From: a virus
Lineage: Duplodnaviria; Heunggongvirae; Uroviricota; Caudoviricetes
Reading direction: 5' to 3' (one strand)
Virus record (IMG/VR): IMGVR_UViG_2737471834_000003
DNA: 6,514 nucleotides
A program made the position numbers and the translations under genes. Of this stretch, positions 1-6,317 are shown piece after piece. The notes under the pieces are model-generated. The model was not told where the DNA came from and ran no database searches. It was given only the letters and a program-made list of their open reading frames with translations. Within the stretch, counting starts at the first letter, position 1; every line of letters starts with the position of its first letter.

Positions 1-291
1 GTTCTCCTGGCTGTCACGCCAGCGACTGATTTCACCGTATTTCTGATTTCTGGCCTTTTCCAGTATCTCCTCTGTCACCACAAACGGCGTGACCTCACCC
101 CAGGCCCCTGATATCAGCCCTGACCAGAGCCTTAACCCGAATTCTGTCGGGTCTGAAGCTCTGGCAGTATAAGGTACATATACCCGATGACTGTCATCAG
201 AACGGTCTGCCATGAACACCTCACAGGTAATGCTGCCGTCTTCATTAAAACGGGCATTGCGGACGTCCGCTTCTGAATTCCTGGTATCCAT
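1..291 (-). CDS. Unidentified ORF immediately downstream of the side tail fiber, 5' part only (97 codons, continues past window start); candidate tail fiber assembly/chaperone protein by position
   Basis: Hand translation of the minus strand from the ATG at 291..289 gives an open frame of 97 codons to the window edge ([41 protein letters not shown]...); the other two minus frames hit stops within ~130 nt. The ATG overlaps the stf TAA stop by one base (TAATG), with GAGGG 8 nt upstream. Absent from the ORF track because its stop lies outside the window. No similarity to lambda Tfa that I can recall; function assigned by synteny only. Confidence 0.5.
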   Translation of the reverse strand, partial: MDTRNSEADVRNARFNEDGSITCEVFMADRSDDSHRVYVPYTARASDPTEFGLRLWSGLISGAWGEVTPFVVTEEILEKARNQKYGEISRWRDSQEN

Positions 292-2012
292 TATTTCACC
301 CTCAGAAAAAGCATTTTCTCTTCAGCTTCTGCATTTCCGCAGGCCATCCATATTCCTGACTGTACCGGGTCAAGCCGCTCTCCGGCCAGTTCATCTCCGT
401 AACTTACCGCATCCTGAGAAGCACAGAACAGGTAACTCCCCACACCACCGGCTACCGGACGACCGGCAAACTGCCACCATGAAGTGGTACCCAGCCCACT
501 GTAAGCCCTGGTGAATGCCTGCCCCATACAGTTAAGGAAAATCTGACCTGAAACATTCTCATTCGTCGGAACCTGCCACATCAGACCATATGCATAATTC
601 CCCGCGGCACCCGGAACGGGGTGGTCTTCACAGGCAAGGTAGTGGTTATATTTCAGCAACGGGAACTGAAGGGCAGAATACATAAAACCATGAGCCAGAA
701 TGCCCGTGAATTTTTTCGCAGTCTTTATCCCGTCTTCCGGGTAAACTCCGCTGGGTCCCATGGGTCCCTGAGGCCCCTGTGGGCCGGTAGCTCCCCGGGC
801 ACCGGTATCACCTTTATCGCCTTTCTCACCTTTTTCTCCCTGAGGCCCGGTATCGCCCCGGTCCCCTTTCTCTCCCTTTTCACCACGGGGGCCCTGTGGG
901 CCGGTCTCCCCCTGCGGTCCGGGCTCTCCCTGTGGTCCTGGCGTTTTTGCAATCTCCCTGGCTTCCTCCAGTGCCTTCAGTGCCCCCTGCTCATGTTCAC
1001 CTGCTGTCGTGGCACTGTCTTCCGCCTGGCTGACCAGTTGCTGCACCTGCCCGGCCTGTAGCTCCACAGACTGGCTTACAGCCACAACACTGTCTGCCAC
1101 ATGCTGAACATTCAGAGCCACGGACTCCGTCTGCGCTTTTATCTGTGCACTCTCTTCTGCACGACTGGCGGCCTCTGTGGCAAAACCCTCTGCCTCATTA
1201 CGTGCCGTTACCGTCTTCTGTAAATCACTGCTTACCTGCCGTGCACTCTGTGCAGCTTCGCTGGCATGCGTCCCCGACTCCACGGCACTGGCTGAAGACT
1301 CACTGGCTGCCTGTTGTGCCTGCTCCAGCAGCCGCTCAGTATCCTGTTTATCCTGCTGAACCTGTCCGGCATTTTCTGCCATTTCTGCAGCCAGTATATT
1401 CACCTGCTGACGCTGTTCTGCCACAACCTCTGCATTTTTCTGCACCGCATCAGCAAGGGTCTGCGTATTATCTCTTGCCTGTGCAGCCTCCACAGCATAT
1501 TGTCCGGCCTCCTGCGCACTTCCGGCTGCAGACTCTGCATTTTTCTGAGACTGCACCTCATAATTCTGCGATTTCCTTTCACTTTCCCGGGCAGCGGACG
1601 CCGATTCTGCCGCTGCCGCGGCGTCTGCGCCTGTTGCCTCCTTATCACGGGTAACCTGCTCAGACAGCGTAATAACGGTATTCACCATTATCTCAAAGCG
1701 TTTCATCACCTCAGGGCGCAAATCGCCATCTTTGGGAGCATCCAGAAATGCATTCAGCGTATCCGGCTTATCCGTCGGTGTGACATAAATCTCACCGGCT
1801 TTTACCGGAGCCCACCCTTCACGGAGAAGAAAAACATCATAAAATCCTGGCTCGGCTTCGATTAAATACCGCCCGTTACTGTCCGTAATACATTCCGCCA
1901 CAATGTGCACAATCACCGTCGGACTCGTTTTTCTGGACCGCAATTCAATTGAACACGCCTGCACCGGTTTACCCGCACCGTCTTTCAGTACACCAGATAT
2001 CTGTACGGCCAT
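291..2012 (-). CDS. stf: Side tail fiber protein (lambda Stf-like N-terminal domain, Ala/Gln-rich rod, collagen-like Gly-X-Y repeats, unrecognised C-terminal domain), 573 aa
   Basis: Track ORF 291..2030 (-). Residues 7-125 of the track protein ([18 protein letters not shown]...[12 protein letters not shown]) resemble the N-terminus of lambda Stf as I recall it ([18 protein letters not shown]...RPEALRRFELMV). I place the start at ATG 2012..2010 rather than the track's TTG at 2030 because GGAG lies 6 nt upstream of the ATG and the lambda homologue begins MAV. It follows J directly, as stf does in lambdoid phages. Confidence 0.85.
747..938 (-). repeat. Collagen-like repeat: 21 uninterrupted Gly-X-Y triplets within stf, including an imperfect ~45-bp tandem duplication
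   Basis: Track residues 365-428 read [64 protein letters not shown], with glycine at every third position. On the plus strand, units beginning ggtatc at ~804 and ~849 (period 45) align at roughly 60% identity. Confidence 0.85.
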
Positions 2013-2060: not shown

Positions 2061-2090
2061 AACAATAAAAAAGGCGCCATTTCTGGCGCC
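2061..2090 (-). terminator. Rho-independent terminator-like hairpin downstream of J (minus strand)
   Basis: Minus-strand sequence GGCGCCA-GAAA-TGGCGCC (7-bp perfect GC-rich stem, GNRA-type loop; plus 2073..2090) followed directly by TTTTTTATTGTT, and sited 20 nt after the J stop. Confidence 0.7.
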
Positions 2091-2109: not shown

Positions 2110-5100
2110 TCAGCTAATCGTGATACCGGCTGTGGATTTTTTCATCACCACAACCAGCAAATCGCTGATACTTGCGGTGGGATACCAGTTATTCACCAGC
2201 CATGCTGACACCGAAAACTCCAGCGTCATGTGGCCGTGACCAGCTGGCATATCAATAACACCACTGTAAATCAGCGTATTATCCAGCGCGGTACGGTTAT
2301 AAATTTCAGCACCATTTTTCTTCACTATCAGGCGGCATGAGGAGTAAATATCAGTATGCTCTCTCTCATGCTTAGCGCCACTGAATGCCACCGCCGGAAT
2401 AACAATTTGCCGGTCAAACGGCTGATCGTCATAAACCCTGACGGTAATGGTCCCTGATGGCCACCGCTCCGGTGCCCGGGAGTCCCGGGGAAAAGCCTTA
2501 CCCACTGTTTTAACAATATCGCCTTCAATCTGGTTGGCTGACAGTTTTCCCAGAATCCGGCAGTTCTCATTTATCGTGACGTTGTTGAGTGTCCCGGAGT
2601 TCGCGTTCACGTTACCGCTGATATCCGCATTTTTCGCCGTCAGCCGCCCGTCCGGAGTCAGGGAAAACGCCGGAGGATTACCGCCACTGGTAATGGTGGG
2701 AGCCGTCAGATATTTCAGGAACACTTCATTCATGAATATCTGATCACCCTGACCAACAAACATCGGCTTTGTGTTGCCATTCGCAGGATTAACCATCGCA
2801 ATCCTGTCCGCCGCCAGCAGCACCTGACTCTGCATGCCGTCAGGGGTGTTCTCAATACCGGCACCAATACCCGCGATATAAAGGCGTCCGTCCTGCATCT
2901 GCTGCAGCTTCACAGCCCACATGCTGTTCAGGTTATTATTTGTATCAACCTGAACCTTCTGTATCTGCTGAATTGCCGCACTCTGGTCTTCCAGTTTCTT
3001 ATTGACGGTCTGCGTGATTTCATTGCTGACATCCGTAATGGACGTCCTGATTTCAGCCAGGTCAGGCGCAAGCTGACCGTTATCAATCTGCGTCCACAGC
3101 TCCTGAGCCAGATGGGTTTTCCCTATCTCGCCTTTGAAAAAATCCAGATAGCCGGATGCATCATCACTCGGCTGACCAACAGCCTCCACGAATGCCGATT
3201 TGCCAACGGTGTTCACACTGCGAACGTAAAAATAATAATCATGGCCCGGTTTGATATTGATACTGGCGGCTATCCAGTACAGCGCCGTGCCAAGATAGCG
3301 GGCTGTGGTTTCAACCTGCCTGATATCGGTAATCCGCTTTTCCGAGAACCAGAACTCAAACTGTACCGTCGGGTCATAAACGGCAAGATGCGGCGTGGCG
3401 GTTATCTGAAAATAGCCCGGCGTCAGCTCAATCCGCGACGGCACTGCAGGTGCGGCAATCCGGAACGATACCGATGCCGGATCGCCCTGCTGCCCCCACG
3501 CATTTACCGCCCGGACTGTCAGCCTGTAGTTCCCCAGCGCCAGCTGCCTGAAGCGGTATGTGGTTTCTGTCGTCCGGGCCGTGCTGACCAGCCGCTCACT
3601 GCCGTCGTCCGCTGCCACGGTCAGGCGAAGCATAAAGCTCACGCCCTTCACCACCTTCGGTGTGTCCCATCGCGCCAGCACCTGATATTCCCCGCTGTCT
3701 GCAGTGACTTCTGCGGTCAGGTGCTGCACCGCTGGCGGCGTGACACCATTCACCGTGCCACTCTGTTCGCCGTCAAAGTGCGCCCCGTTATCCACGATGG
3801 CCTCTTTTTCCGGCACATGCTGCACGGCGGTGATGGCATACGTGCCGTCGTCGTTCTCACGGATACTCACGCAGCGGAACAGGCGCTGGCGCAGCGTCGG
3901 CAGCTTCAGCCCCCATACGCTGTATTCAGCAACACCCTCAGGAACACGGCTCACTTTTACCTTCACGCCGTCGGTGACGGACTGAACCTCCACGCTGACC
4001 GGATTGCCACTTCCGTCAACCAGGCTTATCAGCGTGGTACCGGAGGATGGCAGCGTGATTTCACGGTCGAGCGTCAGCGTCCGGGTCTGGCTGTTCACCG
4101 CCAGCACACGACCACCGGTGCTGATACCGGCATAGTCATCATCGCAGATTTCAATAACATCGCCCGGTACATGGCGAAGCCCTTCTGCGCCGACGCTGAA
4201 ATCCACGGTCTGCGTCTCCAGCAGCTCCGTTTTAATCAGCCACAGCCCGGCGCGGTGTGCCTGCCCCCGGCTGGTACAGCCAAAGGCATCCATCTTCGTA
4301 ACATTACGACCGTAACGGGCAATGGCCTGCGTATCTTCAACAAGCTCTGTCGCCGTCTCCTGGCCGTTGTTCGGGTCAATCCAGTTCACCTCAACGGCAT
4401 TATGGCGGTCTTTCAGGGCGCTGAAGCTGTAGCGGAACGGCGCGCCATCATCCGGCATCACCACATTACTGCGGTTATAGGTCCACGCCTTATCCGATGG
4501 CCGGTCCTGCACGAACGTCAGCGTCTGCCCGTTCCATACCGGCATACAGCGCATCGCCGAGCAGAAATCACTGAGCACATCCCACGCCTTACGTTGTGTG
4601 GTCAGCCAGGCATTACAGGTGATGCGCGGCTCCGTGCCGCCAAAACCGTCCGGCACTGACTGGTCGCAGTACTGGCCGATGACATACAGCGCCCATTTAT
4701 CCACATCTGCCGCACCAAGACGTTTCCCCATGCCGTAGCGCGGGTGGGTCAGCATATCCCACAGACACCAGGCCGGGTTGTTGCTGTATGCCGGTTTTAA
4801 CGTTCCGTCCCAGATACCGCTGTATTGCCGCGTCTGCGGGTTATAGTTCGACGGAACCTGCAGAATACGACCACGAAAATGGTAAGTGCGGTTCACCTGC
4901 TGGCTGCCGAACTGCTCAGAATCCACCTGCACACCGACCAGTGCCGTGTTCGGGTAGCACTGTTTCACATCGATGATTTCGGTGTATGACGACCAGAGCG
5001 TTTTGTTCTGCAGCTGATCTGTGGTGCTGTCCGGCGTCATCCTGCGCATCCGGATATTGAACGGGCGCGGCGGCAGGTTACCCACCACCACCGATGCCAG

Positions 5101-5589
5101 ATACTGTGAGGTGGTTTTGCCTTTAATGGTGATGTCTTTTTCCGTCACCCAGCCACCGTTACGTTGTATCTGAACCAGCAGGCGGACTTCCGACGGATTC
5201 CGGTCCCCCTTTGAGGTGGTTTCCACCAGTGCCTGCACACCGAAGGTCAGGCGCAGACGGTCGATGTTTGCCGACGTGATGGTCCGGGTTATCGGCGTGT
5301 CGTATTTCACTTCCGCACCCAGTACCGTCTCGGAGCCGGAGGATTCAAACCCCTCCGGCGGTGTCTGCTCCTGTTCACCGGAACGGAACACCACCGTGGC
5401 ACCGGAAAAGTTGGTATTCCCCCCGCTGTCCAGTACCGGCGTACCATTCAGGCGGACACTTTTCAGCCCGTCAACCGGACCATAAACCGGTCCTTCACTG
5501 ATGGCGTCAATCACACTCAGCAACTGGGAGGATTTCAGGTTATCTCTGGCTTCACGGGGCGTATGCGCCTTACCGCCACCTTTACCCAT
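2110..5589 (-). CDS. J: Tail tip / central tail fiber host specificity protein J, 1159 aa
   Basis: Track ORF 2110..5592 (-). The protein ([34 protein letters not shown]...) is near-identical over long stretches to lambda gpJ as I recall it ([34 protein letters not shown]...), colinear for ~820 residues and then diverging. Start placed at ATG 5589..5587 (the track's first M is a GTG at 5592), with GGAGAG 3 nt upstream of that GTG. Confidence 0.97.
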
Positions 5590-5645: not shown

Positions 5646-6317
5646 TCAGCGACCAATCACCACTACCTGACCGCCGCCCCCCTCATCAGCCGTGCTGATT
5701 TCCTGTGAAATCACCCGCGATCCCACGAGCATTTCACCGTACAGAACCGGCAGAACATTGCCCTGGGCAACCATGTTATCCAGTGAGGAAAAATAGGTAT
5801 TCTGCTTACCGTTATCCGTTGTCTGCATGCGGGGCGTTTTCGGTTTCGGGGCCAGCATCTGCGCCACACCCCCCAGAATCATACTGGCACCGAGAGAAAA
5901 CAGGATACCGGTCATACCACCGGCCCCAATGGCTGCCCCCCATGCTGCAAGGGTGGCTCCGGCAGTAAAGAATGATCCGGCAATGGCGGCAGCCCCCAGA
6001 ACAATCTGGAATACGCCCCCTGACTTAGCCCCGGCGACTCTGGGAACAATATGAATCACAGCGCCGTCAGGCAGAGTCTCATGTAACTGCGCCGTTAACC
6101 CGGACGTGCTGACGTCCCGCCCGGCAATCCGTACCTGATACCAGCCGTTGCTCAGTTTCTGACGAAACGCAGGGAGCTGTGTGGCCAGCGCCCGGATGGC
6201 TTCTGCCCCCGTTTTCACACGCAGGTCGATGCGGCGGCCAAATCGTTGCAAATCCCCGTAAAGGCAGATGCGTGCCATGCCCGGTGACGCCAGACGGAGT
6301 GTGTGCGTCGCTGCCAT
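5646..6317 (-). CDS. I: Tail assembly protein I, 223 aa
   Basis: Track ORF 5646..6317 (-). The protein (MAATHTLRLASPGMARICLYGDLQRFGRRIDLRVKTGAEAIRALATQLPAFRQK...) has the same length as, and is almost identical to, lambda gpI as I recall it. Its ATG at 6317..6315 lies inside the 3' end of K, as in lambda. Confidence 0.95.
   Translation of the reverse strand: MAATHTLRLASPGMARICLYGDLQRFGRRIDLRVKTGAEAIRALATQLPAFRQKLSNGWYQVRIAGRDVSTSGLTAQLHETLPDGAVIHIVPRVAGAKSGGVFQIVLGAAAIAGSFFTAGATLAAWGAAIGAGGMTGILFSLGASMILGGVAQMLAPKPKTPRMQTTDNGKQNTYFSSLDNMVAQGNVLPVLYGEMLVGSRVISQEISTADEGGGGQVVVIGR

Follow-up and report, generated by a model that had tools for sequence, protein, structure and literature searches.

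The open reading frame that runs off the end of this 6,514-nt stretch of DNA (hereafter, the window) probably constitutes the 5'-terminal half of a gene of 203 codons encoding an intermolecular tail-fiber chaperone of the DUF4376 family, carried by a lambda-like E. coli prophage that sits beside tRNA-Ser and hyaA. Homology to characterized chaperones, gene order across related loci, and co-variation with the tip of the adjacent side tail fiber all point to this putative function.

The window covers contig JUDC01000028.1 (6514 bp; E. coli assembly GCA_000798075.1) from end to end, in reversed orientation, so that the frame is cut by the contig end and not by the choice of window. All real genes of the window are encoded on the minus strand and make up the distal portion of a tail module resembling that of lambda, which also includes a partial NlpC/P60 gpK-like gene (Table 1). 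The side tail fiber gene stf begins with an ATG at 2012, preceded by a GGAG 5 nt upstream, and unlike in lambda, the lom gene is absent between gpJ and stf.

Table 1. Features of the window, and predicted secondary structure of the DUF4376-family protein (residue numbering; L followed by a number denotes a comparison record)
Feature	Position	Strand	Basis or remark
DUF4376-family gene, first 97 of 203 codons (putative Stf chaperone)	1..291	-	translation, relatives, PF14301, phrog_1141, AF2
TAATG overlap of stf stop TAA (293-291) and start ATG of the putative chaperone gene (291-289)	289..293	-	shared base 291
GAGGG Shine-Dalgarno-like motif	299..303	-	7-8 nt 5' of the ATG, within the stf 3' end
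stf side tail fiber, 573 aa (RefSeq gene model)	291..2012	-	PF08400 3e-40, PF01391 1e-15
Terminator-like hairpin GGCGCCAGAAATGGCGCC then T6	2073..2090	-	consensus match only; in the 97-nt gap between gpJ stop and stf start
gpJ central tail fiber / tip attachment protein, 1160 aa	2110..5592	-	six J-specific Pfam domains; gpJ annotated in L001, L002
gpI-like tail assembly protein (lambda)	5646..6218	-	PF06805 1e-28; 190 aa
N-terminal domain of the DUF4376-family protein	strands 10-15, 21-26, 38-43; helix 50-61		AF2
DUF4376 body	helices 74-96, 113-127, 149-183 (long); hairpins 101-110, 136-146		AF2

A gene cut by the contig end

Read along the minus strand, the junction between stf and the following frame is CTGAGGGTGAAATAATGGATACC. 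The preliminary description had noted a frame of at least 97 codons whose ATG shares one base with the stf stop codon, and both points hold: the frame contains no stop through the 97 codons between this ATG and position 1 of the window, and the chance of a random frame staying open over that length is (61/64)^97, or ~0.01 (hand calculation). A GAGG at 303-300, located 8 nt from the ATG, provides a plausible Shine-Dalgarno site. The same TAATG junction is found in L001, L002, and L005-L014, while other DUF4376 family members start either at a TAATG overlap or after a gap of 9-20 nt behind the fiber gene.

All 291 nt of the partial gene are present with 0 mismatches in six further E. coli records (L001, L005-L009), and the ORF comprises 203 codons in each of these six. 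Hence, no stop codon lies just past the window edge, and the very short peptide that the preliminary description had entertained did not materialize. The window includes the entire N-terminal fiber-matched domain of the protein along with the first helix (residues 74-96) of its DUF4376 body; the remaining 106 codons are absent from the GCA_000798075.1 contig, and the intact 203-codon form is known from other genomes. Comparison to close relatives yielded pN/pS ratios, based on small counts, of 0.09-0.33 for codons 1-97 and 0.13-0.17 for codons 98-203, indicating purifying selection on both parts of the gene.

The open frame thus belongs to a real gene whose truncation is due solely to the assembly. 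That GCA_000798075.1 would instead carry a truncated pseudogene, or that the frame would be an assembly artefact, is exceedingly unlikely: while the contig does end within the ORF, and other strains (e.g., TK3046) harbor remnants of this gene left by deletion, the gene is intact in the six genomes sharing the identical 291 nt, the tail module on the contig is wholly intact, and a contig edge at this location would be expected of a short-read assembly reaching a sequence that is repeated among prophages. In the TK3046 remnant (L093:3681-4491), a DUF4376 gene lacking its 5' end is joined directly to a truncated phage lysozyme gene, with the DUF1353 and Eib-like genes downstream still intact. This partial match was considered as a possible domain swap and rejected as a deletion remnant that is uninformative in this regard.

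The two portions of the gene differ in divergence, with synonymous divergence ~4x higher in codons 98-203. This led us to suspect a recombination breakpoint at codon 97, which was rejected because the excess stems from a small mosaic patch in codons 179-195, where L005 differs from L001/L002 by 19 mismatches within ~50 nt in genes that are otherwise near-identical. A second mosaic patch between the same records is located in the stf shaft or tip region. The fiber-tip/chaperone junction itself was detected in only 8 of 5426 complete E. coli genomes, and a megablast search of the region against GenBank phages returned no match. When the 97-aa fragment was used as a protein query, the sole match was one 69-aa partial protein, which was discarded as a candidate for the missing half of the gene as it comes from another assembly (GCA_000818995.1).

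DUF4376 membership, characterized relatives, and the comparison with Tfa

For full-length searches, the query was the 203-aa protein from genomes that share the identical 291 nt. Among Pfam families, it matched DUF4376 (PF14301) over residues 80-185 (71.4 bits for a cutoff of 25, E 1e-19) and no other family at E <= 1, and no NCBIfam model was matched. The 97-aa window fragment displayed no Pfam match because only the first ~18 residues of the PF14301 domain fall within the window. Both forms were recovered using PHROGs, with the 203-aa protein matching phrog_1141 end to end (6e-72) and the 97-aa fragment alone reaching 9.5e-26, and several other PHROGs matched only the C-terminal part (~60-74 to 198), in combination with different N-termini. 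The family is large, encompassing 633 clusters at 90% identity, for the most part prophage proteins from Salmonella and E. coli with lengths of 190-215 aa. Among these clusters, nearly all members named in their source are called "DUF4376 domain-containing protein", and labels of homologues otherwise disagree, ranging from "tail fiber protein" and "side tail fiber" to "tail fiber assembly protein" and "hypothetical". The N-terminal domain is narrower in distribution than the family as a whole, since an exhaustive phmmer search of 1.8 billion representatives returned 45 matches, essentially all of which are DUF4376 N-termini. Multi-stretch matches of this domain to BppU-type fiber (HxH repeats), EF-hand, and cadherin repeat proteins were rejected, as they are sums of 3-9-bit repeats and not homology.

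An AF2 model built on P0002, a protein 98% identical to the target, with 116 aligned relatives (pLDDT 91.5, pTM 0.74), predicted an N-terminal domain of strands and one helix followed by a largely helical DUF4376 body (Table 1). Fold searches of the PDB with this model returned nothing specific, and a search of BFVD identified DUF4376 proteins of sipho-, myo-, podo-, and crAss-like phages, with E-values down to 8.5e-8.

Two characterized proteins of Alteromonas phages annotated as tail fiber chaperones, V22 gp27 and A5 gp9, each match PF14301 as well. The profile of the target family (116 relatives) aligned to V22 gp27 with an hhalign probability of 93% (E 2.8e-7, 134 columns) and to A5 gp9 with a probability of 81% (E 1.2e-5), and the aligned regions of all three have in common a W-x-T-x-D-N motif and the C-terminal helix. 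As in the target, PF14301 occupies the C-terminal half of gp27 and gp9, which are ~195-240 aa in length and encoded right after a fiber gene, and both are predicted to combine three N-terminal strands with a beta-hairpin-bearing helical body, the layout also predicted for the target. The models published for these two proteins have the three strands extending the fiber-head sheet by beta-sheet augmentation (PMC10579305). There are also clear differences. The N-terminal domains of gp27 and gp9 are unrelated in sequence to that of the target, with alignments beginning around residue 50-58, and the target model displays two short hairpins instead of a long "tentacle". Whereas the Alteromonas fibers are of the knob type, the presumed client in the E. 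coli prophage is a collagen-repeat Stf of the lambda type that ends in an orphan tip. The start and stop codons overlap by one base instead of being separated by a 12-nt gap as in both V22 and A5, and the phage is an enterobacterial temperate siphophage.

Experimental evidence for chaperone activity is available for several of these relatives. The V22 GFP-gp26 fiber binds host cells only if co-expressed with gp27, which then separates fully from the still-functional fiber on size-exclusion chromatography (PMC7289586), and both gp27 and gp9 co-purify with their fibers (PMC7289586, PMC10579305). The A5 protein gp9 is more stably fiber-bound after purification, yet it is dispensable for a functional fiber, and a "transient cap" has been proposed (PMC10579305). 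Hence, DUF4376 membership is no guarantee of an essential chaperone role. Similarly, the H-fiber of the Campylobacter CJIE1 prophage needs the downstream DUF4376 gene, with co-expression required for this fiber to act as a receptor-binding protein on an R2 pyocin (PMC7882524). As in the E. coli prophage, the Campylobacter CJIE1-like protein is encoded after a fiber gene, here of the Mu/P2 type with a DUF3751 N-terminus, a likeness taken from the published description. DUF4376 chaperones have also been reported as similar to the intramolecular chaperones (Peptidase_S74 type) of T5 pb1 and the K1F endosialidase, which feature a helical trimer core and a beta-hairpin tentacle (PMC10579305).

The region following a fiber gene is where Tfa proteins are encoded too, and we considered whether the target could be a divergent classical Tfa (Caudo_TAP, PF02413: lambda Tfa, Mu U, P2 G) of which only the variable N-terminus looks unfamiliar. 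The N-termini of Tfa proteins reportedly vary even within Caudo_TAP, so that an unfamiliar N-terminus alone does not exclude this family. In Tfa, the variable N-domain is said to bind the fiber tip while the conserved C-domain drives assembly. Lambda Tfa, Mu U (TfaMu), and P2 G accordingly share with the DUF4376 protein a genomic position, a similar size (194 and 175 aa for Tfa family members vs 203 aa), and a two-module logic of variable N-domain and conserved C-domain, and this suggests the same working model for both. DUF4376 has in addition been said to correspond to the C-terminus of Mu Tfa (PMC7882524). However, this last statement, i.e., that Mu U carries DUF4376, was not reproduced by Pfam: lambda Tfa, Mu U, and Mu U' matched PF02413 (127-148 bits, 1e-37 to 1e-43) and gave no match to DUF4376, whereas the 203-aa protein had no match to PF02413 at E <= 1. 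When the target-family profile was compared to a Caudo_TAP profile, the latter being shallow with 3 sequences (Tfa, U, U'), hhalign returned a probability of 0.8%, and no Caudo_TAP protein was found among the 50 best BFVD matches listed. BLASTP comparisons were likewise non-significant, with a 9-residue match to lambda Tfa at E 0.098 and an E-value of 23 against Mu U. There is hence no detectable sequence or profile similarity between the two groups, and the probability that the target is a Tfa is close to negligible, this reading being effectively refuted at the sequence level. Importantly, this exclusion rests on the C-terminal half of the protein, which lies outside of the window.

The observation in the preliminary description that the N-terminus is unlike that of lambda Tfa therefore stands, and the full ORF, once translated and searched against profiles, matched DUF4376 and not Caudo_TAP. 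The conserved C-terminal Tfa motif envisioned there did not come up as a PF02413 match at E <= 1, nor did any unrelated characterized family among Pfam and NCBIfam. The same description had left a choice between another chaperone family and an unrelated accessory gene: the first option is supported by PF14301 and by relatives with proven activity, and the second is not favored. Judged by its sequence, the protein belongs to the DUF4376 family, a kind of tail-fiber chaperone that has already been described and that appears unrelated to lambda Tfa. A location directly after a fiber gene is common to several unrelated chaperone families, and hence is not diagnostic by itself. Small proteins encoded after a distal fiber gene that chaperone or cap the tip also include T4 gp38 and T2/S16 gp38. 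The gp38 fold is a polyglycine sandwich, whereas the target is predicted to be helical and has no Pfam or PHROGs match to the gp38 families.

Pairing with the fiber tip and putative mode of action

Across 80 IMG/VR loci, the DUF4376 gene was located <=20 nt after a long ORF on the same strand in nearly all cases where such an ORF was found. In 10 out of 10 sampled loci, this upstream ORF encodes a tail fiber of the lambda or P2 type, with phage_tail_N, Phage_tail_fib, Collagen, Phage_fiber_2, or gp37_trimer domains identified across the ten fibers. In the window, Stf is composed of a phage_tail_N domain, a long coiled-coil-like shaft rich in Ala, Gln, and Glu, collagen Gly-X-Y repeats (~760-950), and a C-terminal tip (~294-715), which is presumed to be the client of the chaperone. 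Following the collagen repeats, this tip (~140 aa) constitutes an orphan domain without any match in Pfam, PHROGs, or the PDB. A search of 5.8 billion proteins recovered a single cluster for it at 90% identity and no distant homologues, it occurs in 8 of the 5426 complete E. coli genomes, and a single-sequence AF2 model of it was unusable (pLDDT 36).

We then evaluated how the two proteins vary together using 54 non-redundant fiber/chaperone pairs. Identity between fiber tips was most strongly correlated with identity in the N-terminal chaperone segments, with rho values of 0.77 (residues 1-45), 0.75 (46-72), 0.54 (73-130), and 0.44 (131-end), or 0.79 and 0.49 for the N- and C-domains when the protein is split in two. 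For tips less than 20% identical, N-domains were also ~20% identical, while C-domains were still 53% identical. The C-terminal segment was in turn better correlated with the fiber shaft (rho 0.65) than with the tip (0.44), a pattern that would not be expected from pure distance-dependent linkage. While confounded by linkage and shared ancestry, this co-variation suggests that the tip and the N-domain behave as one exchange cassette.

Based on these patterns, we propose that the DUF4376 gene would be transcribed as part of the late tail operon together with stf, and that ribosomes ending at the stf TAA would reinitiate at the overlapping ATG, which we infer because of the TAATG overlap and the GAGG motif. 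The N-domain (~residues 8-72: three beta-strands and a helix) would then dock on the C-terminal tip of nascent Stf chains, possibly by beta-sheet augmentation as in the published V22/A5 models, and the helical DUF4376 body (~74-190, with two beta-hairpins and the W137-T-D-A-D-N motif) would self-associate, bringing three Stf C-termini in register. Trimerization of the tip and of the collagen-like shaft would proceed from the C-terminus, after which the protein would dissociate, or stay as a weakly bound fiber-tip cap.

This last option connects to the main rival explanation, namely that the protein would be a component of the distal side fiber retained in the virion as an adhesin or as a cap permanently bound to the tip, and involved in receptor recognition like T2/S16 gp38 or the fiber-bound Mu Tfa. 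We consider this reading unlikely, although it is not mutually exclusive with a chaperone function. The matched PHROG families are labeled "tail fiber protein", and homologues in GenBank are named "stf2: side tail fiber" or "tail fiber protein", but these labels seem to reflect gene position instead of experiments. The co-variation between N-domain and tip is what would be expected of an interacting partner, and A5 gp9 stays largely fiber-bound after purification, leading its authors to propose a cap (PMC10579305); V22 gp27, on the other hand, leaves its fiber without loss of function on size-exclusion chromatography (PMC7289586). The protein is also modeled as a small alpha/beta protein without fiber-like repeats or the exposed hypervariable loops of the gp38 type, and its most conserved part is the helical body rather than a surface expected to contact a receptor.

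If the chaperone reading is correct, a common class of E. coli and Salmonella prophage fibers would use a DUF4376 chaperone rather than Tfa, adding an enterobacterial temperate siphophage to a family so far characterized in marine phages and a Campylobacter prophage. The fiber-matched part would be the N-terminal ~70 residues, with tip and N-domain traveling as one cassette, and stf/chaperone pairs would then have to move together when retargeting lambda-like particles or pyocins to new hosts. It would also allow many of the "DUF4376 domain-containing protein" annotations across the 633 clusters to be given a name. No new principle is revealed here: this is an ordinary gene, of modest use for fiber engineering and annotation.

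Downstream genes and the end of the prophage

In the genomes where the locus is complete, the next gene lies just past window position 1 on the minus strand (L005:12326-12703, L001:6014-6391) and overlaps the stop codon of the DUF4376 gene by 8 nt (ATGAGTAA). It codes for a DUF1353 protein of 125 aa (PF07087, 2.6e-33). This protein is identical in length to the S. Typhi phospholipase A2 TtaP and retains its catalytic H70, D71, and D85, while the corresponding family is labeled "tail assembly chaperone" in PHROGs. The prophage ends directly after DUF1353, beside tRNA-Ser and hyaABCDEF (L005:12704-13400; L001:6550-6637), and stf, DUF4376, and DUF1353 are thus the last prophage genes. In some strains (L002:6796-7959; L093:5268-6557), DUF1353 is followed by an Eib-like gene with a YadA anchor (PF03895, 1e-16), an arrangement that matches ORF-191/eib of P-Eib phages, ORF-191 being a homologue of the target.

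Prophage ends are regions where cargo genes accumulate, and the target could be viewed as an accessory or moron gene unrelated to fiber assembly that merely happens to share this location with DUF1353 and, depending on the strain, an Eib-like gene. Its rank among the last three prophage genes, the putative TtaP-like phospholipase encoded next to it, and the location of ORF-191 just upstream of the eib genes in P-Eib phages would all fit such a scenario. However, the gene follows a fiber gene in lambda-like, P2-like, podo-, and marine phages, whatever comes next, and DUF1353 follows DUF4376 in just 27 of the 59 related loci whose sequence extends far enough downstream, making the fiber the constant partner of the DUF4376 gene. 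Together with the demonstrated chaperone function of homologues, this makes an accessory role very improbable.

A different and rather improbable extension of the putative chaperone role would link the three genes in a translationally chained host-entry cassette, in which the DUF4376 protein would act as a releasable tip cap that recruits, or times the action of, a lipid-cleaving enzyme at the outer membrane. V22 encodes a permuted papain-like amidase in the slot occupied by DUF1353, which hints at a parallel. Were this the case, the typhoid-toxin islet gene ttaP would represent a domesticated gene from a tail-fiber operon. Finally, four related loci (L026-L029) carry two different DUF4376 genes in tandem after one fiber gene (3983-4561 and 4677-5321), followed by DUF1353.
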